Shown piece by piece: positions 3,204 through 47,085 of a stretch of 64,000 nt of DNA. The notes below the pieces were generated by a model. It ran no database searches. It was not told the DNA's origin and was given only the letters and a program-made list of their open reading frames with translations. Where the stretch lies: positions 636 to 64,635 of the forward strand of contig JBAZQN010000012.1 in assembly GCA_041645165.1 (NCBI GenBank), read 5' to 3'. The position numbers were made by a program, and so were the translations under genes. Each line of letters begins with the position of its first letter. Positions within the stretch are counted from its first letter, which is position 1. This stretch comes from Patescibacteria group bacterium. GTDB lineage: Bacteria > Patescibacteriota > Patescibacteriia > 2-02-FULL-49-11.

Positions 3204-6200
3204 TTGCATTTTGATTCTCTTATGATGTTTGAAGAACAACACCCCTCTACTGATTTTGACGCGATACGCCTGCGCCTCGCCAGCCCTGAGGTGATGAGGA
3301 AGTGGTCCTATGGAGAGGTGACGAAACCAGAAACCATCAACTACCGCACGCAGAAGCCGGAGAAGGATGGTTTGTTTGACGAGCGCATTTTCGGCCCCAC
3401 GAAAGATTGGGAGTGTTACTGCGGGAAGTACAAACGTATCCGCTACAAGGGCATCGTATGCGATAAGTGCGGCGTCGAGGTGACGCGCGCGGTCGTGCGC
3501 CGGGAGAGGATGGGTCATATAAACCTTGCCGCGCCCGTCACCCATATTTGGTTCTTACGGAGCGTCCCGTCCAATATCGGGCTCATGCTTGACCTCTCGG
3601 TGCAGGAGCTTGAGAAGGTAGTGTACTTTGCAAATTTCATCGTGCTCAAGGTGAATGAGGAGTTGAGGCAGGCAACCCTTCAGCAAGTCCAGGATGAGCA
3701 CAAGACGAGGAAGAAGGAGATTGAGCGGGAGTGGGAACAAACGCACAGCGCTCTCATGGCGGATAAAAACGCGAGCGGCGTCAGCGAGCGTGTGGTCCAG
3801 CTCCAGCGGCAAAAGGAAGAGCGTCTTAAGGAGCTGGAGAGCGCCGTAATACTTGCGCGTAAGGAAATCACCGAATTGAAACCGCTCATGACCATGTCGG
3901 AGTCGCAGTACCAGGATTTGGCGCTGAAGTACGGCCATGTATTTGAAGCGGGGATTGGCGCGGAAGCAGTCTACGAACTACTCAAGAGCATCGACCTTGC
4001 CGCGCTCGTGCGCGAGCTTGAGGATGAAGCGCATGAAGTGGTGGCGTCAAAACAGAAAAGGGTTTTAAAGCGGCTGAAGCTCACGAAAACATTTCTCCTC
4101 AATGGGATACGCCCGGAATGGCTGGTGCTTACCGTCGTGCCTGTAGTACCTCCTGATTTGCGTCCGATGGTGCAGCTTGATGGAGGGCGTTTCGCCGCGT
4201 CCGACTTGAATGACCTCTACCGCCGCGTCATCAACCGCAATAATCGCCTGAAGCGCCTACTGGAACTTAATGCGCCTGAGGTGATTACCAGGAATGAAAA
4301 ACGCATGTTGCAGGAAGCAGTGGACGCTTTGATTGACAACAGCGCGCGCCACGGCAAAACCGTCACCGCGTCCACCGGGCAGAAGAGGATGCTCAAATCC
4401 CTTGCCGATATTTTGAAGGGGAAACAAGGGCGTTTCCGCCAGAACCTGTTGGGGAAGCGCGTGGACTATTCCGGACGTTCGGTCATCGTGGTGGGGCCGC
4501 ATCTTTTACTCCACCAATGCGGGCTCCCTAAGAGAATGGCGCTCGAACTTTTCAAGCCGTTCGTGATTGCGAAGCTCATCGCGGGAGAATACGTCCATAA
4601 CGTGCGTTCTGCCAACCGGTTTATCGAATCCGGGCGGAGCGAAGTGTGGGATATTCTTGAAGAGGTGACGAAAAATTCCCACGTCTTGCTCAACCGCGCG
4701 CCCACCCTGCACCGGTTGGGAATCGAGGCGTTTCAGCCGATCCTTATTGAAGGGAAAGCAATTCAGGTCCACCCTCTGGTGTGCCCTCCTTTCAACGCGG
4801 ATTTCGACGGAGACCAGATGGCGGTGCATGTGCCGCTCACGGAAGAGGCAAAAAAAGAAGCGCGGGAGTTGATGCTCGCGTCCCGTAATATTTTAAAACC
4901 CGCGACAGGCGATCCCGTGATGGCTCCCCAGCAAGATCTCGTCTTGGGCTGTTTCTATCTTTCAACGTTTACGCGCGAGTCCTCTGAACTTCCCCAAACC
5001 GCATTAAAAAAGTTTTTCAATTCGGACGAGGCACTTACCGCATATGAAGTGGGCAGTATCCGTTTGCGCGAGCGGATACTGGTGCGCTACAGAGGCGCGC
5101 TCCTTGATACTTCAGTGGGCCGCATCATATTCAATGAGACGCTTCCCGAACAACTGCGGTTCGTGAACGAGGTGCTGGACAAGTCGAGATTGCGCTCACT
5201 TATCGCAAGGAACGTGGAGCACTTTGGCATTGAACCGACCGCACTGCTGTTAGACGAGATAAAGCGACTTTCTCTTGAGTATCTCACTATGTCAGGCATC
5301 TCTTGGGGCATGGATGACCTGCCGAAACTTCCTGAAAAAGATGCGATTGTTGCGAGCGCGGATAAGGAGGTGGATGAGGTGGAATCCATGTATGAACAAG
5401 GGTTACTTACTGATGACGAGCGCCATACCAAAGTGATTGAGATTTGGGCGCGGGTGAAAGATGAAGTGACGAAAATATCCAAAAAAAGCCTTGACCGCAA
5501 CGGTTCGGTCTATGCGATGATCGAGTCAGGCGCGCGCGGCAGCTGGGCGCAGATTACGCAAATGATGGGTATGAAAGGGAACGTGGCAAACCCCGCCGGT
5601 GATCTCATTGAATTGCCGGTCAAAGCAAGTTTCAAAGAAGGCCTTGAGGTGCTTGAATATTTCATATCCACCCACGGCGCGCGCAAAGGCTTGTCTGATA
5701 CCGCATTAAGGACTGCCAATGCGGGCTATCTGACGCGGCGCTTGATTGATGTGTCCCAGGATGTGGTTATCTTGGAGGAGGACTGTGGCGACACTGAAGG
5801 ACTTGCCATTACCAAGGAAGACAGCGAGGAGATGGGAGAGACTATTGCAGCGCGGGTACGGGGCAGGAAATTAGCTGCGGCGATAAAGGAACCCTCCACC
5901 AAGAAGGTGATTGCCAAAAAAGGGGAGACCGTGACTGATGAGCTTGCGCGGCAGATTGAATCTCTCAACTTGGACTTGGTGAAGATACGGTCCGCGCTCT
6001 CGTGCAAGACGCTTCGGGGTTTATGTGCCGCCTGTTATGGATGGGATTTGGGATACAATAAAGATGTTGCGAAGGGGACTGCCGTGGGTATTATCGCTGC
6101 GCAGTCCATAGGAGAGCCTGGCACCCAGCTCACTATGCGCACGTTCCATACGGGCGGTGTGGCCGGATCAGATATCACTCAAGGTCTCCCTCGTGTGGAG

Positions 6201-7082
6201 GAGCTTTTTGAAGCGCGTCCGGTGAAACGCCCCGCGCTCATGGCGCCCATTGAAGGCACGGTCGCGATTGGAGACGCGGCATCTGTGCCGGGGCAGGGGG
6301 GCAGGCAGCGCATCATTACCATAACCGGCAAGGAACTGCATGAGGAAAAAATTGAAATTGGTCCTGCCGACCTTGACCAGCTTCTCGTGAAGGACGGGGA
6401 GAAGGTGAAGCGCAATGCAGTGCTTCTTGAAACTGCTACCAAGAAGGTCATTGCCCCCATCGCAGGGGTCGTGGAAGTGCGCGAGGGTGAAGGCGGGCGG
6501 CTCTTGCTTATTATCAAGACGGAGCGCGACGCCACTAAAGAGCTTATTGTCCCTGCGGGGATAGGGCTCTGGGTTCGCGAAGGCGACACTGTGGAACGCG
6601 GAGACCAGTTGACGGAAGGGTCGCTTGATTTGCATGAGCTTTTTGCCTTAAAAGGCAAAGAAGCGGTGCAAAAATATGTGATCAAAGAGATTCAGTATAT
6701 CTATTCTTCGCAGGGGCAGAAGCTCAACGATAAACATATCGAGATCATCGTGCGCCAGATATTCTCCCGCGTGTATATTATGAGCGCAGGCGATAGCGAA
6801 TTCCTGCCCGGGGAAGTGGTGGAATTATCGGAGTTTGAGTCAATGAACAGGGATATTATCGCGCGCGGCAAGAAGCCTGCGACCAGCAAACAGCTGCTCT
6901 TAGGCATCACCAAGTCATCGCTCTCGACTTCCTCATTCCTCTCTGCCGCGTCGTTCCAGGAAACCGCGCGCGTGCTCATTGACGCGGCGGTGTCAGGCAA
7001 GGTGGATCACTTGAGGGGCCTCAAAGAAAATGTCATCATCGGCCGGCTCATCCCCGCAGGCACCGGGTTCAGGAAGACGTAG
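3204..7082 (+). CDS. rpoC: DNA-directed RNA polymerase subunit beta'
   Basis: 1292 aa; Zn-binding CYCGKYKRIRYKGIVCDKCGVEV, catalytic NADFDGDQMAVHVPL, C-terminal GRLIPAGTGF; canonical rpoB-rpoC order. Confidence 0.97.
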   Translation: MHFDSLMMFEEQHPSTDFDAIRLRLASPEVMRKWSYGEVTKPETINYRTQKPEKDGLFDERIFGPTKDWECYCGKYKRIRYKGIVCDKCGVEVTRAVVRRERMGHINLAAPVTHIWFLRSVPSNIGLMLDLSVQELEKVVYFANFIVLKVNEELRQATLQQVQDEHKTRKKEIEREWEQTHSALMADKNASGVSERVVQLQRQKEERLKELESAVILARKEITELKPLMTMSESQYQDLALKYGHVFEAGIGAEAVYELLKSIDLAALVRELEDEAHEVVASKQKRVLKRLKLTKTFLLNGIRPEWLVLTVVPVVPPDLRPMVQLDGGRFAASDLNDLYRRVINRNNRLKRLLELNAPEVITRNEKRMLQEAVDALIDNSARHGKTVTASTGQKRMLKSLADILKGKQGRFRQNLLGKRVDYSGRSVIVVGPHLLLHQCGLPKRMALELFKPFVIAKLIAGEYVHNVRSANRFIESGRSEVWDILEEVTKNSHVLLNRAPTLHRLGIEAFQPILIEGKAIQVHPLVCPPFNADFDGDQMAVHVPLTEEAKKEARELMLASRNILKPATGDPVMAPQQDLVLGCFYLSTFTRESSELPQTALKKFFNSDEALTAYEVGSIRLRERILVRYRGALLDTSVGRIIFNETLPEQLRFVNEVLDKSRLRSLIARNVEHFGIEPTALLLDEIKRLSLEYLTMSGISWGMDDLPKLPEKDAIVASADKEVDEVESMYEQGLLTDDERHTKVIEIWARVKDEVTKISKKSLDRNGSVYAMIESGARGSWAQITQMMGMKGNVANPAGDLIELPVKASFKEGLEVLEYFISTHGARKGLSDTALRTANAGYLTRRLIDVSQDVVILEEDCGDTEGLAITKEDSEEMGETIAARVRGRKLAAAIKEPSTKKVIAKKGETVTDELARQIESLNLDLVKIRSALSCKTLRGLCAACYGWDLGYNKDVAKGTAVGIIAAQSIGEPGTQLTMRTFHTGGVAGSDITQGLPRVEELFEARPVKRPALMAPIEGTVAIGDAASVPGQGGRQRIITITGKELHEEKIEIGPADLDQLLVKDGEKVKRNAVLLETATKKVIAPIAGVVEVREGEGGRLLLIIKTERDATKELIVPAGIGLWVREGDTVERGDQLTEGSLDLHELFALKGKEAVQKYVIKEIQYIYSSQGQKLNDKHIEIIVRQIFSRVYIMSAGDSEFLPGEVVELSEFESMNRDIIARGKKPATSKQLLLGITKSSLSTSSFLSAASFQETARVLIDAAVSGKVDHLRGLKENVIIGRLIPAGTGFRKT

Positions 7083-30526: not shown

Positions 30527-31012
30527 ATGAAAAATTTAAGAAAAATAATGGTTTATTTATCAGTCTTTACTGGTTTATTGGGTTTGTGTATTGGGCAATA
30601 TTTTTATTTCGCAGCTAAATCATACCGATTAAGATCCCTTTGTCCCGTGCGTAGTGAAGTCAAATATCAATGTTTAGATAAATATCAAAATTTTGGACTC
30701 TGGCTCTCACTTATCTCTTTCTTTGTTTTGGTTATCTTAGTTATTATGTTTATCGTTAGTGAACCACGGATTCGTGTGGTGTGGAAAAAATTTACATTCT
30801 GGTTCATTCCCCTAGCTATCATAATCACCCTCGTGAGCCCCGGCAGCTGCGGAGGGTCAATTAGTAGTTTACTCTGTTGGAGCCAAGAATGGTCCGTCAT
30901 GTTTTTCTCCGTAGTCTATATCTCCGTATCTATCTTGATACTTATCATCAAGTCGTGGAAATTAAGAAAAGAGAATAAAGCGAATGAGCTTCCTATTAAG
31001 ACACAGGGTTGA
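30527..31012 (+). CDS. Membrane protein (161 aa) with Cys-containing loops
   Basis: 4 TM helices; AT-rich island. Confidence 0.5.
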   Translation: MKNLRKIMVYLSVFTGLLGLCIGQYFYFAAKSYRLRSLCPVRSEVKYQCLDKYQNFGLWLSLISFFVLVILVIMFIVSEPRIRVVWKKFTFWFIPLAIIITLVSPGSCGGSISSLLCWSQEWSVMFFSVVYISVSILILIIKSWKLRKENKANELPIKTQG

Positions 31013-40901: not shown

Positions 40902-41903
40902 ATGTTTGATGTCATCACCATCGGCGCGGCAACCCAGGATGTATTCTTGATGAGCAAGGGTTTTCACCTTATGCGATCTTCTCGCATGAAACGGATATGT
41001 GAGTGTTTCCCTCTGGGCGAAAAAATAAACGTAGAGCGCATTGATTTTGAAACCGGCGGCGGAGCAACAAACGCTGCGGCGACTTTCCGTAATTTGGGAT
41101 TCAGCGCGGGTGTCATTGCCAAAGTAGGGGATGACAGCGCAGGCGCGGCGGTAGTAAATGATTTGCGCGGGAGAGGATTAAAGACTGATTGGGTGCGTCA
41201 CGTGGCGGGGGGCACGACTGGGTTTGCGGCCATACTCCTTACTCCCCACGGCGATCGCACGGCGCTTGTCCATAGGGGCGTGTCCGCCTCGTTTTCCTCT
41301 GCAGATATTCCTTGGCAGAAGCTCAATGCGGCGTGGCTTGTGGTCACTTCGCTTGCGGGAAACATCGCATTGCTCAAGCGCCTTATCAACGCAGCGTGCG
41401 CGCGTGGGGTGCGGGTCGCGTTCAATCCGGGCATGGGAGAATTGCGTTATGGTCTCGAAGTCCTTCGTAAGCATTGCAGCGCCGCGCATGTGCTGCTGCT
41501 CAATCGCGGAGAAGCGAACATGCTCGCCTCGCTGAAGTTCTGGCGAAGCGGGCTCGCGCCAGGCGCGCGTGATATCCGTGCGCTCCGGCGCCGTTTATCT
41601 GCCCGTTTTCAAAATGCCGTCGTGGTCACTGAGGGAGCGCGGGGCGCGTATTATTGGGATCAACGCCAGTTCTTATGGGCGCAGAGCAAAAAAGTGAAGG
41701 TGGTGAATTCTACGGGCGCGGGCGATGCATTTGGCGCCGGATTTATTTCTGGTATACTGCGCTGGCGTGACCCTGCGCGGGCGCTGCAACTGGCGACACT
41801 CAATGCGCTCGGCACGATACAACAGATGGGCGCTAAAAAAGGGTTGCTTACTAAATGGCCTACGCAAGCTATACTGGATGGAATTAAGATAACGTCATTA
41901 TAG
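40902..41903 (+). CDS. PfkB-family carbohydrate kinase (ribokinase-like)
   Basis: N-terminal DVITIGAATQDVF, GGGATNAA, C-terminal GAGDAFGAGFISG anion hole motif. Confidence 0.85.
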   Translation: MFDVITIGAATQDVFLMSKGFHLMRSSRMKRICECFPLGEKINVERIDFETGGGATNAAATFRNLGFSAGVIAKVGDDSAGAAVVNDLRGRGLKTDWVRHVAGGTTGFAAILLTPHGDRTALVHRGVSASFSSADIPWQKLNAAWLVVTSLAGNIALLKRLINAACARGVRVAFNPGMGELRYGLEVLRKHCSAAHVLLLNRGEANMLASLKFWRSGLAPGARDIRALRRRLSARFQNAVVVTEGARGAYYWDQRQFLWAQSKKVKVVNSTGAGDAFGAGFISGILRWRDPARALQLATLNALGTIQQMGAKKGLLTKWPTQAILDGIKITSL

Positions 41904-42032
41904 AATATTCAATTTTTCAATTCTCAATTTTACAATTTTCACTCAATGATTCAATGATCCAATTTTCAAACATTGAAAAATTGAAAATTAATTGAAAATT
42001 GAACATTGAAAATTGGAAATTATTAATAAATT

Positions 42033-42668
42033 ATGAATACACAAAAGGAACAAAAGAAGAATATTGGTTGGCTCAAGTATACGATATGCGTTTCAGGCGC
42101 TGCGGGCGGTCCCGTGGTGACGCAAGCGGCGATGGATAAAGCAAAAGAAATAGGCCGTGAGATCGTGCGGCACGGGTGTGTGCTCGTGACGGGCGCCACC
42201 ACCGGCATCCCCTATGCGGCTGCGCAGGGAGCAAAAGAGTTGGGTGGCATTTCCATAGGCCTGTCCCCCGCCTCCTCCGAGCGGGACCATATACGCCATT
42301 ACCACCTGCCGACCAAGTACTTTGATTTGATCATTTATACAGGATTCGATTATTCAGGAAGGAACCTCCTGCTCACCCGTGCTTCGGATGCGGTGATCGT
42401 CATTAATGGAAGGATAGGGACGCTCAACGAGTTTACCATTGCCTTTGAAGATCGGAAACCCATCGGGGTGCTTATCGAGAGCGGCGGTTCTGCTGATTTG
42501 ATAAAAGGGATTGTGAAGGCGGCGCAGAAAGGCGCGGGGAAAATTATCTATCACAACGAGCCGAAGGTATTGGTGGAAAAAGTGCTTGCACTGGTCAGGA
42601 AAGAAAAATTAATGAAGCCTCCTCTAAGCGAATACTTTTTGAACCACCATTATCATGGAAATGAATAG
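42033..42668 (+). CDS. LOG-family/TIGR00725 Rossmann-fold nucleotide-binding protein
   Basis: CVSGAAGGP...VVTGATTGIPYAAAQGA...GRIGTLNEF pattern of the SLOG/LOG superfamily; 211 aa. Confidence 0.7.
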   Translation: MNTQKEQKKNIGWLKYTICVSGAAGGPVVTQAAMDKAKEIGREIVRHGCVLVTGATTGIPYAAAQGAKELGGISIGLSPASSERDHIRHYHLPTKYFDLIIYTGFDYSGRNLLLTRASDAVIVINGRIGTLNEFTIAFEDRKPIGVLIESGGSADLIKGIVKAAQKGAGKIIYHNEPKVLVEKVLALVRKEKLMKPPLSEYFLNHHYHGNE

Positions 42669-42771
42669 GATGGGAAATCCCAATGACAAATTTCAAATGT
42701 CAAATGAATATCAAAGCTCAAAATCCAAATTTGACATTGGGGTTTTGAATTTTATTTGAACTTTGAACTTT

Positions 42772-42828
42772 GTCCCGCACTTTGAATTATTTTATCTAAG
42801 GTATGCGGGATCCCGCCTGAGCGGTGAG
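42772..42828. repeat. Repeat family E module (identical to 39991-40047)
   Basis: 85-bp exact duplicate. Confidence 0.75.
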
Positions 42829-42864
42829 ATTTTGAAATTATGGTGATGGCTGGTCGCAATAACC

Positions 42865-43827
42865 TTGTTATTTTTTATGAAGAGTCGAAATAAATATGAT
42901 TTGATAATTGTCGGTGGTGGTGCCGCAGGATATGCCGCGGCGCTCTACGCGAAACGGTATGAACTTTCTGTGTTGTTGATAGAAGGAGAAACTCCCGGAG
43001 GAGAAACCGCAAATGCGGGATTAATTGAAAATTATCCCGGTTTTGATGCGATTGACGGGTATGAGCTCTATCAGAAATTCCGCAGCCATGCGCTCAAGTT
43101 CGGCGCTGAAATCCAATCGGGCAGGGTTGAGAAAGTGACACAAGAAGGCCATCAGTTCAAAGTGTCCGTAGGGGGACAAGGCGAGAAGGAAGGCTTATGC
43201 ATTATATTCGCCCATGGTCAGGCGCGCAGGAGATTGGGGCTTCCAAGCGAAGATCGCTTAACCGGCAAAGGGGTATCTTACTGCGTCACCTGCGACGGGC
43301 CATTGTACAAAGGGAAGACCGTGGGGATTGTGGGAGGGGGCGATGCGTCGGTGAAAGGAGTAAATCTGCTTACTGAATTCGTTCATAAAGTTTTCTTAAT
43401 TGTTATGCTGGGGCAAGTGAACGCAGAACCTATTAATTTTCGGCTCATGCAAAGCAAGGGTGACAAGGTTGAAGTGTTATACCATACGCAAGTAAAAGAG
43501 TTATTAGAAGAGAGCGGAAAATTCGCGGGAGTGAAGCTCTCACCGGGTTATCAAGGAAATGACATCCTTAAGCTTGATGGGTTGTTTATAGAAATCGGCG
43601 CAGTGCCGGATCGGGCGCTTCCCGCATCTCTGGGGGTGGCGCTCGCCGAGAGCGGGCATATTCACGTGGACCAATTCATGCGGACGAACATCGCGGGTAT
43701 TTTTGCCGCAGGGGACGTGACGGACGCCACGGGATCATTCCGCCAGATCGTCACCGCGGCCGCGCAAGGGTCCATCGCGGCGACCAGCGCGTATGAGTAT
43801 CTGAAAATCCTAAATCCGAAATCCTAA
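42865..43827 (+). CDS. trxB: Thioredoxin-disulfide reductase (NAD(P)H, FAD)
   Basis: YDLIIVGGGAAGYAAALYA FAD motif, redox CVTCDG, NADPH GIVGGGD, C-terminal FAAGDV; probable start ATG 42877. Confidence 0.9.
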   Translation: MLFFMKSRNKYDLIIVGGGAAGYAAALYAKRYELSVLLIEGETPGGETANAGLIENYPGFDAIDGYELYQKFRSHALKFGAEIQSGRVEKVTQEGHQFKVSVGGQGEKEGLCIIFAHGQARRRLGLPSEDRLTGKGVSYCVTCDGPLYKGKTVGIVGGGDASVKGVNLLTEFVHKVFLIVMLGQVNAEPINFRLMQSKGDKVEVLYHTQVKELLEESGKFAGVKLSPGYQGNDILKLDGLFIEIGAVPDRALPASLGVALAESGHIHVDQFMRTNIAGIFAAGDVTDATGSFRQIVTAAAQGSIAATSAYEYLKILNPKS

Positions 43828-43911
43828 ACAAACTCAAAGCACAAAATTCAAAGGTGAAACAGTTTTGTATTTCGGATTTGTTTAGAGTTTAGTGTTTAGT
43901 ATTTAGAGTTT

Positions 43912-44055
43912 ATGCTATTAAGCGACCTCTGCGAATGCGGCTCTGGTTTAGTCTATGGCGCGTGCCATGGTTCCATGGAGCCGTGCGACTGCGGATCCGG
44001 CGATCCTGCGGGCAGCTGTTGTTATGACGTTGACAATGGCGAGGAGGAAGAATAA
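43912..44055 (+). CDS. Cys-rich 47-aa ORF MLLSDLCECGSGLVYGACHGSMEPCDCGSGDPAGSCCYDVDNGEEEE between trxB and tlpA
   Basis: Uninterrupted ATG-TAA frame (below the track cutoff), 7 Cys in CxC...C...CxC...CC spacing, acidic tail; genome-typical GC. Confidence 0.4.
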   Translation: MLLSDLCECGSGLVYGACHGSMEPCDCGSGDPAGSCCYDVDNGEEEE

Positions 44056-44089
44056 CAAAAAAGCAAAATGCAAAACTCAAAATTATGGA

Positions 44090-44106
44090 GTCCCGCAAAG
44101 CGGGAC
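44090..44106. repeat. Repeat family E minimal hairpin gtcccgc-aaa-gcgggac within the 95-bp module upstream of tlpA
   Basis: Module near-identical to 23095-23190. Confidence 0.65.
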
Positions 44107-44160
44107 AGAATTCTTTCATTTTGATTTTTGGTCTTTGATTTTTGCATTTCACACAAAGGT

Positions 44161-44805
44161 ATGTCCTTTCCCCACCGCGTGAGACCAGGAAGGCGCGCCC
44201 AAGCCCGCCTGTCTGGGCGCAGGACGAAATGGTTCTTAGGAGCCGCGGCGCTGTTGCTTGTGTCAGGCGGCGTTCTTTTTTTATATTTCACCAGAGGGAC
44301 CACCCTTGTGCTAGATAGTGCGGACGTGTCAGGTGAAGCCTCATCCACCGCCCAAGACATCCCTCCTGCCGGAAGCGATGAGTTCATGCCGCCTTTTTCG
44401 GCGGACACGTTCGAAGGGAAACGTTTTTCAGTGGCGGAGTATGAGGATAAAACCGCGGTTATTATTGATTTTTGGGCTTCATGGTGTTCGTTTTGCGTAA
44501 AGGAAATGCCGCTTATACAGCACATGGCGGATTTGTACGGGAAAGACAAGCTTACCGTGGTCGGCATTCATCGCGGCGACTCTGAGCCTGTAGAAAAGGG
44601 AGTAGCGCTCGCGGCGAAGTTAGGGATAAAATATCTCCTGCTCCAGGATCCTGAAGGGAAATATTTCAAGTTGCTCGGGCAGGGGAAACCATTCATGCCG
44701 CTTACCATATTTATAGACCGCGAAGGGCGCATAGTGGAGCGGCGCATCGGCCCCAAAACGGCGGAAGAAATACGGGTGAGCACGGCGAAGATCATAGCCC
44801 CATGA
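44161..44805 (+). CDS. TlpA/ResA-family thiol-disulfide oxidoreductase (thioredoxin-like, membrane-anchored)
   Basis: WASWCSFCVKEMP active site; N-terminal anchor LGAAALLLVSGGVLFLYF; ATG directly after the repeat E module; track ORF 44128 (TTG) is read-through. Confidence 0.85.
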   Translation: MSFPHRVRPGRRAQARLSGRRTKWFLGAAALLLVSGGVLFLYFTRGTTLVLDSADVSGEASSTAQDIPPAGSDEFMPPFSADTFEGKRFSVAEYEDKTAVIIDFWASWCSFCVKEMPLIQHMADLYGKDKLTVVGIHRGDSEPVEKGVALAAKLGIKYLLLQDPEGKYFKLLGQGKPFMPLTIFIDREGRIVERRIGPKTAEEIRVSTAKIIAP

Positions 44806-44974
44806 GGGGAAATTCTAAACTCTCTCGTTACGCGAGATCTGGCGTAGCCAGATAAATTCTAAATACTAAACAAATCCAAAATCCAAATTACCGAAATTCA
44901 AAACGATTTTGGGCATTTGGGTTTTGAGCTTGGAATTTATTTAGGATTTAGGGCTTCGGATTTAGAGCTTCTCA

Positions 44975-45922
44975 ATGTTTTTGCACACTTTCCATCCTTC
45001 TCCCATTCTTTTTTCTTTTGGTCCCTTTTCCGTCCACTGGTACGGTCTTTTCATGCTCGCAGGCGTCGCGGCAGGCTACGCAATTGCGCGGCGCACGTTT
45101 GCGTGGGCGCGCGTTTCCCCCTCGGTCCTTGATCGTCTCGTCACTGCGCTCATTCTGGGCGGCTTCATAGGCGCCCGACTCTATCATGTCCTGAACGTAT
45201 TCGGGTATTATTGGTCGCATCCTTTGGACGTGTTCGCCGTGTGGAAAGGGGGTCTTGCGATCCACGGCGCGCTCTTGGGAGGATTGATTGCATTGTGGTG
45301 GTTTGTCGGCAAGCGTACACACCCTGTCCCGATATGTCGGGACATCCCTCTCAAGAGGGGATTTCGTACGGTCGAGTCCCCTCCTACGGAGGGGTGGCCG
45401 CAGGCCGGGGTGGGTGGTGCCCGCGAAAGGTTGTGCACATGTTTACTGATCACCGACCTCCTTGCGCCTTCCGTCGCGCTCGGCCAGGCGATTGGCCGCT
45501 GGGGAAATTATTTTCGGCAGGAGCTCTATGGCCTGCCGACTGACCTGCCGTGGGGAATTCCCATCGATGCTGCGCATCGGCTCTCTGATTTCACGCAGTA
45601 CAAATATTTTCATCCCGTATTTCTCTATGAGTCAGTGTGGTTAATCATTGTGTGTATTATCCTTCTTGTCATCCTGAGCGGAGTGATGCGGAGCAGAACA
45701 GAGTCGAAGGATCTCCGGCGAATGCCGGTCGGTCGCATCTTCTTCCTCTACCTCATCCTTGCAGGACTCGGGAGATTCTTCATAGAATTTTTACGCATCG
45801 ACCCGATGCCGCTGGTGTACGGCGTGCGCCTGCAGCAGCTCGTGAGTATAATCTTAATAATGGTAGGATTTGGTGGAATTGTTTGGATGCGGCACCTGGC
45901 TCGGGGAGGAGAAGATAATTAA
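44975..45922 (+). CDS. lgt: Phosphatidylglycerol-prolipoprotein diacylglyceryl transferase
   Basis: HWYGLFMLAGV, Lgt signature GQAIGRWGNYFRQELYG; about 35-aa in-frame insertion relative to typical Lgt. Confidence 0.85.
   Translation: MFLHTFHPSPILFSFGPFSVHWYGLFMLAGVAAGYAIARRTFAWARVSPSVLDRLVTALILGGFIGARLYHVLNVFGYYWSHPLDVFAVWKGGLAIHGALLGGLIALWWFVGKRTHPVPICRDIPLKRGFRTVESPPTEGWPQAGVGGARERLCTCLLITDLLAPSVALGQAIGRWGNYFRQELYGLPTDLPWGIPIDAAHRLSDFTQYKYFHPVFLYESVWLIIVCIILLVILSGVMRSRTESKDLRRMPVGRIFFLYLILAGLGRFFIEFLRIDPMPLVYGVRLQQLVSIILIMVGFGGIVWMRHLARGGEDN
45322..45425 (+). repeat. Palindrome-dense in-frame insertion inside lgt (three consecutive hairpins)
   Basis: gtcccgatatgtcgggac, tccctctcaagagggga, cccctcctacggagggg, then ggccgcaggcc; encodes HPVPICRDIPLKRGFRTVESPPTEGWPQAGVGG, directly before the Lgt signature. 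Confidence 0.6.
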
Positions 45923-45927
45923 TTCTA

Positions 45928-46656
45928 TTGCATAAAACAGAAGAAACGTGTACGATAGCCAGTGAAGAAATACTGCATATCATGCCAAAATATAAAGCAA
46001 AAAATGAAAATTTTTTTAAACACTGGTCGCCTTCGATGGCATATACACTTGGTTTTTTCTGCGCAGACGGTTCGATGTTTGTAAATCCACGAGGGAGCAG
46101 GTATGTTGCCTTTTACTCAAATGACAGGAATGTGCTTGAATTTATTCGCAGGGCTATTGGTGCGGCACATAAAATAAGTGTCAAACAAGTAGGGAAATTC
46201 GGAAGGAAATCGCCAGCATATTTTCTTCAGATTGGGAGTAAAGAAATGTTTATTGACTTGTCCCGAATGGGTATCATGATCAATAAGAGTAAACGAATGG
46301 TGCTTCCAGATATTCCTGAGGATTGCTTCTCTCCTTTTGTGAGGGGTTATTTTGACGGAGACGGCAATGTCGTGTATGGTCTATATAAAAGAAAAGCTCG
46401 GCCCCATCCTGCGAGGATATTACGGGTTAGCTTTACTTCAGGGAGCAGGGGGTTTCTTAAATCGTTATCGGAAAGATTATTTAGTACGTTACAGATTGAA
46501 GGTGTTCTAAGTTATTACGGGAGAGCATGGCGCCTTGTGTATAGCAATCGTCCATCATTACACTTATTGGAGTTTATGTATGCGCCTCGCTTAGATCAGC
46601 TTCCCGTGCTACAAAGAAAATTTGAGAGGTTTATAAAAGCGAAAAAATATATGTAG
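45928..46656 (+). CDS. Free-standing LAGLIDADG homing endonuclease (two-motif, monomeric type)
   Basis: LGFFCADGSMF and RGYFDGDGNVV LAGLIDADG motifs; about 40% GC against about 55% flanks; stop codon abuts tRNA-Asp. Confidence 0.85.
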   Translation: MHKTEETCTIASEEILHIMPKYKAKNENFFKHWSPSMAYTLGFFCADGSMFVNPRGSRYVAFYSNDRNVLEFIRRAIGAAHKISVKQVGKFGRKSPAYFLQIGSKEMFIDLSRMGIMINKSKRMVLPDIPEDCFSPFVRGYFDGDGNVVYGLYKRKARPHPARILRVSFTSGSRGFLKSLSERLFSTLQIEGVLSYYGRAWRLVYSNRPSLHLLEFMYAPRLDQLPVLQRKFERFIKAKKYM

Positions 46657-46731
46657 GGGCCGGTGGTGTAGCCTGGTTTGCACACCTCCCTGTCACGGAG
46701 GTAGTCGCGGGTTCAAATCCCGTCCGGCCCG
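46657..46731 (+). tRNA. tRNA-Asp (anticodon GTC)
   Basis: GGGCCGG/CCGGCCC acceptor stem, anticodon arm CCUCC-CUGUCAC-GGAGG, T-arm GUUCAAAUC, discriminator G, no encoded CCA. Confidence 0.9.
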
Positions 46732-46837
46732 TTGTGTTTTTCACCACCTTGATAGAGGGCGGTGATATTATTTTCGATTGACTAAAGTCAATTTTTGCTG
46801 TATAGTAGAAACAGACAGTGCGAAGGAAAAAACAAAA

Positions 46838-47029
46838 ATGCAGTTTCAAATACAAAAAAGCGCGCAGGCCAACCACACGTCTATCGAACAACAAGAGCGG
46901 CCAGAATCCTTGGACCTGGAATCATCGGTCGATGATTTTAGGTTTGAGAAGGAAGTGTCGCAGAGGCACTCTTTATTATTTTCGTCGTTCTTCCGCAAAC
47001 CTCCGCGCCCACTCCTCTGGCCGTATTAA
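46838..47029 (+). CDS. Small hypothetical ORF (63 aa) between tRNA-Asp and a terminator
   Basis: AAGGAAAAAACAAAAATG context; terminator 47064-47085 follows; no homology recognized. Confidence 0.3.
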   Translation: MQFQIQKSAQANHTSIEQQERPESLDLESSVDDFRFEKEVSQRHSLLFSSFFRKPPRPLLWPY

Positions 47030-47063
47030 AAAATGGCAGAAATTGGAATATAAACTTAAATAG

Positions 47064-47085
47064 TCGCCATTATGGCGATTTTTTA
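47064..47085 (+). terminator. Rho-independent terminator
   Basis: tcgccat-t-atggcga followed by TTTTTTAT. Confidence 0.65.

Follow-up and report, generated by a model that had tools for sequence, protein, structure and literature searches.

A LAGLIDADG homing endonuclease gene abutting tRNA-Asp in a Patescibacteria genome, and a family of relatives beside the same tRNA across the phylum

We analysed a stretch of 64,000 nucleotides from a Patescibacteria group bacterium (GenBank assembly GCA_041645165.1, contig JBAZQN010000012.1, positions 636 to 64,635 of the forward strand), hereafter called the window, in which a gene for a LAGLIDADG homing endonuclease is located between lgt and an intact tRNA-Asp(GTC) gene (Table 1). 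The last base of its TAG stop codon directly precedes the first nucleotide of the tRNA, which was recognized by both ARAGORN and Rfam and is the only tRNA of the window. This arrangement had been described in an earlier reading of the bare sequence (the original prediction) and was confirmed here, as were the two LAGLIDADG motifs. The length of 242 amino acids given there, on the other hand, has to be corrected. It corresponds to the longest form of the open reading frame (ORF; 45928..46656, + strand), beginning with TTG 45928. This codon is in frame with ATG 45982, from which the N-terminus MPxxKxKNENFFKxW is conserved in 33 relatives and with which the public gene call agrees. The upstream part is thus an unsupported in-frame extension and the protein has 224 residues.

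Table 1. Features of the endonuclease locus, given in positions of the window
Feature	Position	Strand	Evidence and remarks
LAGLIDADG homing endonuclease gene	45982..46656	+	224 aa and TAG stop codon (46654-46656); PF14528, conserved N-terminus, gene call, AlphaFold, Foldseek
LAGLIDADG motif 1, LGFFCADGS	46048..46074	+	Catalytic Asp29 at 46066-46068; D29 invariant (33-member alignment)
LAGLIDADG motif 2, RGYFDGDGN	46342..46368	+	Catalytic Asp127 at 46360-46362; R121, G122, Y123, D125, G126, D127 and G128 invariant
tRNA-Asp(GTC), intact, CCA not encoded	46657..46731	+	ARAGORN; Rfam RF00005, 60.8 bits
lgt, upstream flanking host gene	44975..45922	+	Pfam PF01790, E=3e-65
Left junction, spacer from lgt stop to endonuclease start	45923..45981	+	Junction sequences compared by eye with contig L091 (see text)
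Right junction, window-specific DNA 3' of the tRNA	46732..46773	+	blastn blocks and junction sequences

The gene is not embedded in any other element. Its ORF lies entirely 5' of the first tRNA nucleotide, an Rfam scan of the 64 kb found no group I intron or other Rfam family beyond the tRNA, and Pfam searches gave no intein domain in the window and no Hint match in the endonuclease, whose two LAGLIDADG repeats account for all 224 residues. With the tRNA-Asp intact, the window does not contain a collaborative-homing pair either. The free-standing character that had been predicted is borne out by these scans. Of the two origins offered in the original prediction, a remnant of an intron that once split a neighbouring gene finds no support: the ORF is outside the intact tRNA, no intron remnant was detected, and the introns found in relatives are ORF-less and located inside tRNA-Asp. 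The other, a tRNA-linked homing site, is strongly supported by the tie to tRNA-Asp across the family and by absence of the gene at this locus in the closest relatives, both described below.

As had been noted, the ORF has about 40% GC; its GC content at third codon positions (GC3), 0.37, is the lowest of the 39 window ORFs of at least 150 aa (mean 0.578, sd 0.074). In a promoter and terminator scan, no terminator-like site was found between lgt and the endonuclease gene (+ strand, 45206-46327), and the gene showed no convincing promoter of its own, only a weak promoter-like match overlapping the start codon. The 150 nt 5' of the start codon contain no remnant of tRNA-Asp or tRNA-Met (local-alignment score 18, null mean 18.3), and no copy of the tRNA 3' end was found downstream in the window.

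The protein matches Pfam family LAGLIDADG_3 (PF14528, E=3e-10); the JGI label 'intein-encoded DNA endonuclease-like' reflects this match only. Both catalytic aspartates (D29 and D127) and 26 more columns are invariant in an alignment of 33 family members that includes the window protein, which by definition therefore has all 28 residues. Degenerate motifs, which the original prediction had named as fatal to it, are thus not what the alignment shows. The AlphaFold model built on the family alignment (pLDDT 93.3, pTM 0.90) consists of two alpha-beta-beta-alpha-beta-beta-alpha repeats, in agreement with the tandem fold by which LAGLIDADG enzymes build their DNA-binding saddle, and its Foldseek comparison with the PDB retrieved only LAGLIDADG enzymes, the best of them all homing endonucleases or maturases. 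I-Tsp061I is the best match (E=1.7e-10); I-SmaMI, I-OnuI, E-DreI, I-AniI and the bI3 maturase are further ones (probability 1.00 for I-Tsp061I, I-SmaMI, I-OnuI, E-DreI and I-AniI). A sequence profile search agrees with these structural neighbours, and the identity of the window protein to any solved enzyme is about 17%. In the closest family pairs, the ratio of nonsynonymous to synonymous substitution rates (dN/dS) is 0.06-0.19, and the protein is therefore under purifying selection; synonymous divergence (dS) is at least about 0.8 even in the closest pairs. Judged by alignment and model, the window protein is an intact two-motif LAGLIDADG homing endonuclease of the monomeric type, presumably active as a nuclease.

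Next, the locus was compared with three contigs found through the closest lgt homologues, which have the upstream synteny trxB, small SEC-C ORF, redoxin and lgt in common. This comparison, proposed in the original prediction, showed two of them to be devoid of the gene. Contig L092 is collinear with window positions 41127-47044 at 78-91% nucleotide identity and has its tRNA-Asp inverted; in L091 (70-79% identity) tRNA-Asp is located 13 nt past lgt. The last ~35 nt before the window ATG ('gtgtacgatagccagtgaagaaatactgcatatc|ATG') resemble by eye the sequence right before the L091 tRNA-Asp ('ggtacgatagcatgtgatgaaagtgcataa|GGGCCC'), a likeness too short for a blastn block. Homology to both contigs resumes at about 46774-46794 (~42 nt past the window tRNA), at the promoter of the next small gene. 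From these junctions, the window-specific segment extends over ~45982-46773 and comprises the endonuclease gene, tRNA-Asp and a short tail. The locus is thus polymorphic for presence of the gene among related genomes, and, as read from the collinear flanks, the endonuclease gene is here a lineage-specific insertion into the lgt-tRNA-Asp unit.

The window tRNA-Asp itself is an outlier: the tRNA-Asp genes of L091 and L092 share 88% identity, but that of the window only 78-79% with either, and identity in nearby flanks goes up to 90.6%. Such divergence is unusual for a tRNA and fits a replacement along with the endonuclease gene; the adjoining tRNA-Asp copy was probably acquired together with it.

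To obtain a sample free of bias, metagenomes were scanned for tRNA-Asp of the window's sequence type, which yielded 77 loci, 63 of them with at least 700 nt upstream, and an intact endonuclease gene was found at none of these 63. One of them (L166) retains a 40-codon C-terminal endonuclease remnant overlapping the tRNA start, and several loci are empty tRNA-Met/tRNA-Asp junctions with spacers of 0-21 nt. Absence of intact copies, together with the remnant, shows that the gene is dispensable, sporadic and able to decay.

Partial duplications of tRNA-Asp were also seen among the metagenome loci without the endonuclease gene. In L134, L148 and L157, an intact tRNA-Asp is followed 31-61 nt on by an extra tRNA-Asp 3' half starting from the anticodon, and L141 contains a second partial tandem copy. 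Breaking off at the anticodon loop, these half-gene duplications may be traces of earlier breakage or insertion at that point.

Relatives of the window protein are numerous. A protein search detected 767 of them (representatives of 90%-identity clusters), nearly all about 220 aa long and from Patescibacteria, or Candidate Phyla Radiation (CPR); taxa named in their sources are Sungbacteria, Azambacteria, Berkelbacteria, Moranbacteria, Minisyncoccales and others. The closest non-identical relative shows 54% identity. An exhaustive profile search gave at least 1233 clusters at 50% identity (E<=1e-30), and when one genome per species was scanned, at least 503 proved to be carriers.

In the three relatives looked up first, tRNA-Asp(GTC) lies 5-8 nt past the stop codon, with one or two tRNA-Met genes upstream. 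Linkage was then scored with ARAGORN and our own scripts in 80 species loci containing relatives at 40-54% identity, of which 76 were evaluable and 68 fully resolved. An intact tRNA-Asp is located beside the stop codon in 49 loci, a split tRNA-Asp with both exons located in 19, and a tRNA-Asp 5' exon followed by the start of an intron in six; two loci (L046 and L076) form the class 'different or unresolved' and in four the contig ends before the stop codon. Thus, tRNA-Asp starts within -78 to +72 nt of the endonuclease stop codon in 74 of the 76 evaluable loci, a recurrence which puts the adjacency far beyond chance. The stop codon even falls inside the tRNA in 48 of the 68 fully resolved loci, the TAG occupying tRNA positions 8-10 in 26 loci and positions 13-15 in 14. 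A gap of 0 to +20 nt separates stop codon and tRNA in 16 loci, and the window belongs to this class.

Judged from these loci, the genes form a Patescibacteria-wide family with a fixed genomic home at the 5' edge of the tRNA-Asp(GUC) gene. A context shared by all relatives, which the original prediction took as an argument against mobility, is indeed seen among the endonuclease homologues, but mobility is not thereby refuted, the gene being missing from relatives of the host organism. No linkage to tRNA was seen in phage relatives (27-37% identity), any tRNA being present within 3 kb in two of 80. Phages were considered as vectors and rejected, since the viral relatives are distant and do not share the tRNA linkage.

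A subset of the family (P0248, P0253, P0263, P0265, P0270 and others; L046, L053, L089) consists of proteins of 290-330 aa with an N-terminal extension of ~90 aa, which may be a genuine domain or result from a wrongly called start. Where the genome is labelled Omnitrophota or Planctomycetia, tRNA-Val(TAC) takes the place of tRNA-Met as upstream neighbour. The tRNA-Met/tRNA-Met/tRNA-Asp clusters of L003 and L008 contain additional ORFs. Small GIY-YIG ORFs (82-89 aa, PF01541 E=1.6e-15; L003 4015-4284, L008 224-472 on the - strand) flank or overlap the first tRNA-Met, and ORFs of 125 and 159 aa without a family match lie between the two tRNA-Met genes. Other ORFs in the tRNA-Met/tRNA-Asp clusters of relatives were considered as extra endonucleases and rejected, a nuclease family match being obtained for the small GIY-YIG ORF only.

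Upon closer inspection, the adjoining tRNA-Asp proved to be split in 25 of 74 loci by a group I intron of 204-260 nt that lacks an ORF and is inserted between U35 and C36 of the anticodon GUC; owing to the intron, ARAGORN missed tRNA-Asp in about a third of carrier loci. Introns of a ~245-nt class match Rfam RF00028 with E of 1e-19 to 1e-21, those of a ~210-nt class with E of 1e-8 to 1e-13. Read by eye, the exon sequence CUGU can pair with a conserved intron GCAG, leaving a U-G wobble at the 5' splice site, and in L084 and L043, whose introns were followed base by base, a G stands immediately ahead of the 3' exon. The spliced tRNA-Asp has a perfect 5-bp anticodon stem in all 19 loci with both exons located. 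All these introns are too short for an ORF and lie within the anticodon loop, downstream of and separate from the endonuclease gene. More group I introns occur in the same tRNA clusters with no adjoining endonuclease gene (L014 5197-5407, L041 2392-2604, L067 2522-2758); that of L014 splits the anticodon loop of a tRNA(CAU) with an initiator-like CGCGGGG acceptor.

In search of clues to target and mobility, we found in three relatives a near-perfect tRNA-Asp 5' fragment 9-30 nt 5' of the start codon (tRNA positions 1-38 in L069, 1-27 in L002 and 1-22 in L078). The allele of these fragments differs from that of the functional downstream tRNA-Asp, and L069 has in addition kept, further downstream, the old tRNA-Asp 3' end that matches its fragment. 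Of the 80 loci, 25 have the anticodon-loop motif TGTCA[CT] no more than 45 nt from the start codon, as against 1.7% of control windows; in 14 of them the motif stands exactly 16 nt ahead of the start. In 22 of the 80, as against 1.0% of controls, there is a TATAAT-like box whose end lies 4-10 nt ahead of the start codon, a position which suggests a near-leaderless transcript; the upstream module of relatives reads 'CCTGTCAC-N-TATAAT'. Finally, L034 and L036, whose endonucleases show 77% amino acid identity, share the block of endonuclease gene and tRNA-Asp only, their 3-kb flanks on each side being unrelated. Taken together, the 5' fragments, the anticodon-loop motif and the shared block suggest an element that inserts in or next to tRNA-Asp together with a tRNA-Asp of its own, stumps of the old gene being left behind.

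Three other possible signals were discarded. Clustering of tRNA differences in the anticodon stem, considered as a sign of an arms race, is seen in L034/L036 and not in other close pairs. A region of ~170 nt that has a tRNA-Asp 3'-end copy as its terminal part, considered as the 3' portion of the element, is present also at 7 of 66 loci without endonuclease. A neighbour-joining tree of endonucleases set against host taxonomy is too weak because of divergence, and record titles are too coarse.

Regions of this kind, ~110-185 nt long and often placed between two terminator-like hairpins, were observed 3' of tRNA-Asp in L013, L014, L018, L020, L022, L029, L038, L066, L069, L077, L081, L082 and L090, and also in L119, L122, L127, L131, L140, L147 and L149. 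Their last 18-23 nt repeat the 3' end of tRNA-Asp from T-loop to discriminator, and their 5' part is complementary to the T-loop of this copy; they occur with and without the endonuclease gene and have no Rfam match. The region could have been left by an integrative element targeting tRNA, or it could be a novel small RNA.

On balance, and with some reserve, we favour the view that the gene is a selfish free-standing homing endonuclease which has the tRNA-Asp locus as its target and travels with a linked tRNA-Asp copy. The enzyme would make a double-strand break in tRNA-Asp loci lacking the endonuclease gene, occupied loci being presumably immune, and the cut would most likely fall within tRNA-Asp itself, near its anticodon or D-arm. 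With an occupied locus as template for repair, the broken one would receive both the endonuclease gene and the tRNA-Asp allele linked to it, which would amount to intronless homing with co-conversion of the flanking tRNA gene. Because it is located between a promoter and the probably essential tRNA-Asp, often overlapping the tRNA 5' end, the ORF would be transcribed with the tRNA and would be hard to silence or delete. In the window, where no terminator follows lgt and no convincing promoter precedes the ORF, and given the short distance from lgt to tRNA-Asp in L091, the tRNA is probably transcribed through the endonuclease ORF; RNase P would then cut right after the UAG. A more elaborate version, possible in our opinion though rather doubtful, is a 'home-and-rescue' element, whose endonuclease would cut the resident single-copy, probably essential tRNA-Asp near the anticodon loop; the element would insert there, the old 5' half being left as a stump and re-used as promoter or operator.

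Several observations weigh against the proposed selfish element. The window has no upstream tRNA-Asp remnant, intron or TATAAT module, so that its mode of arrival is reconstructed from three genomes only, and with the closest relative of its protein only 54% identical, no recent donor is identifiable. A tRNA-Asp 100% identical to that of the window (77 nt including 2 nt of 3' flank) is present at L142 157-233 and L169 492-568 with no endonuclease gene, so that this allele is not confined to carriers. The GC3 of the endonuclease gene varies with that of its host (77 loci; r=0.79, slope 0.47, mean difference -0.10), and L028 and L037 have diverged to a similar degree in the endonuclease (67% identity) and in a flanking host protein (60%), which fits vertical descent. 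Both observations point to long vertical residence in many lineages rather than to frequent transfer. Group I introns are also found in neighbouring tRNA-fMet genes of some loci with no endonuclease gene nearby, and intron-split tRNAs have been noted in passing in CPR genomes (PMC8172020; bioRxiv 10.1101/2020.01.27.920355). Since CPR tRNA genes carry group I introns independently of the endonuclease gene, the link between intron and endonuclease may be coincidental. The family thus has the appearance of a long-standing inhabitant of the phylum, passed on vertically over long periods, with losses and the occasional gain.

Low GC was considered as proof of recent transfer and rejected, because in the same 77 loci the endonuclease is systematically AT-richer in GC-rich hosts; the GC3 deficit of the window gene relative to its host, -0.21, is typical of GC-rich hosts. 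The tRNA-Asp genes of L142 and L169 follow an ABC-ATPase-like gene, have their own TTGCAG-N17-TATAAT promoter and show no other likeness to the window.

Conservation of position across many classes, strong purifying selection, a GC3 partly adapted to the host, divergence in L028/L037 consistent with co-divergence and an upstream module at fixed distance from the start codon would all suit a domesticated protein, kept for a host function tied to the tRNA-Asp operon (e.g. control of transcription or the handling of pre-tRNA), which would have descended vertically from early Patescibacteria onwards, with loss in some lineages. We nevertheless consider domestication unlikely: the gene is absent at the same locus of L092 in DNA of 78-91% identity and intact at none of the 63 similar tRNA-Asp loci, its copy in L166 has decayed, and the modules of L034 and L036 are alike although their flanks are unrelated. 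Moreover, loss of catalytic residues is described for maturases, bI3 among them, and for WhiA, a domesticated LAGLIDADG protein, whereas here both catalytic aspartates are invariant. An equally improbable alternative is a stranded relic, which arrived once by homing or illegitimate recombination, is now immobile here for want of an active enzyme or a target, and is kept as its deletion would endanger the tRNA. This would agree with the lack of a close donor and of any upstream promoter module or remnant in the window, as well as with a weak promoter-like match at the start codon and a stop codon abutting the tRNA; it is harder to reconcile with a full-length ORF that possesses all 28 family-invariant residues (by definition of an alignment including it) and with a family that as a whole is under purifying selection.

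The enzyme might also serve the introns, as a maturase or partner that helps to splice or mobilize the tRNA-Asp group I intron by collaborative homing, the window copy being left over after intron loss. The maturases bI3 and I-AniI are among its structural neighbours, and phages provide a precedent of a free-standing endonuclease acting with an ORF-less intron (PMC3984707). Yet two thirds of the carrier loci, the window included, are without intron, the window tRNA has no scar, intron presence varies between close endonucleases (L030 and L084, 68% identity), and the introns of neighbouring tRNA-fMet genes have no such gene nearby, all of which makes this role very unlikely in our judgement.

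Of the known systems, the free-standing Seg/Mob endonucleases, which act by intronless homing, and T4 SegB in particular offer a close parallel to the selfish element proposed here. The SegB gene lies in a tRNA gene cluster, and the enzyme favours inheritance of its own gene and of flanking tRNA genes by cleaving the homologous region of genomes without segB (PMC2330249, PMC2988022), which matches the proposed co-conversion of the linked tRNA-Asp. SegB, however, is a GIY-YIG enzyme of a phage and acts in co-infection, whereas the window gene encodes a LAGLIDADG protein, and its family is found on the chromosomes of cells throughout a bacterial phylum, always with a bond to one specific tRNA that often extends to physical overlap. 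In collaborative (trans) homing, as in F-CphI with the cyanophage psbA intron and mobE with the I-TevIII intron, the endonuclease target is the insertion site of an intron, which confers immunity (PMC3984707; PMC2790892). The ORF-less intron in the tRNA-Asp beside the endonuclease gene in a third of relatives recalls this arrangement, from which the window differs in having no intron, in its host gene, a tRNA, and in its setting on a bacterial chromosome.

LAGLIDADG endonucleases in rRNA insertions and introns of CPR bacteria, e.g. I-ShaI (PMC11270868), share superfamily and host phylum with the window gene, and the archaeal rRNA-intron enzyme I-Tsp061I, also of this superfamily, is its closest solved structure. 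These enzymes are embedded in rRNA introns or insertions, and I-ShaI has a single LAGLIDADG domain, unlike the two-motif, intergenic and tRNA-linked window gene. I-Ssp6803I, the endonuclease of the Synechocystis tRNA-fMet intron, belongs to the PD-(D/E)XK family and not to LAGLIDADG. The passage in PMC3984707 that cites this enzyme gives the anticodon region of a bacterial tRNA gene as its target; it differs from the window gene in being encoded inside the intron.

No earlier report of a LAGLIDADG gene tied to tRNA-Asp was found in full-text literature searches, with subscription journals outside their coverage, and the family, large as it is, is apparently undescribed. What the searches did bring up concerns LAGLIDADG genes in CPR rRNA insertions, free-standing endonucleases in phage tRNA clusters, collaborative homing, and catalogues listing intron-split tRNAs. 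To our knowledge, work on free-standing homing endonucleases has dealt almost entirely with phages; LAGLIDADG enzymes of cellular genomes have mostly been met in introns and inteins or, within CPR bacteria, in rRNA insertions. The interest of a family tied to a single tRNA gene across a whole phylum, often sharing nucleotides with that tRNA, rests on scale and strictness of the linkage and on the possible home-and-rescue logic. If active, it would be a natural system for studying how a selfish nuclease persists beside or within a probably essential single-copy RNA gene, as well as a cellular test case for collaborative homing as a presumed route of origin of mobile group I introns. It would also provide a large panel of compact (~220 aa) monomeric meganucleases, with targets probably readable from tRNA-Asp alleles. 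Should the home-and-rescue version be true, it would represent a third solution, besides introns and inteins, for a homing endonuclease inside an essential gene, and a natural counterpart of the existing synthetic cleave-and-rescue gene drives. Annotation is affected as well, tRNA-Asp being missed where an intron is present and the endonuclease gene being labelled 'hypothetical' or 'intein-encoded' in public records.

Other parts of the window deserve brief mention. An insertion in lgt (about aa 117-160; window 45320-45450, GC-rich, with several short hairpins) was considered as a mobile insert and rejected, since relatives vary in length and sequence of the same loop, which is thus an ordinary variable loop. 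Second to the endonuclease gene in lowness of GC3 (0.40; GC 0.37) comes a 161-aa ORF at 30527-31012, which gave no convincing Pfam match and may likewise be foreign. The small gene directly 3' of the window tRNA-Asp runs from ATG 46838 to a stop at 47029 and encodes the protein MQFQIQKSAQANH...PLLWPY, which has no Pfam match. The whole unit (46778-47080) includes a strong promoter-like site at 46778-46806 (10/12 matches) and a terminator-like site at 47062-47080. Its DNA identity to L092 (5262-5515) is 90.6%, above that of most neighbouring genes (78-86%), and in L091 it is present twice (6163-6415; about 6697-6899).

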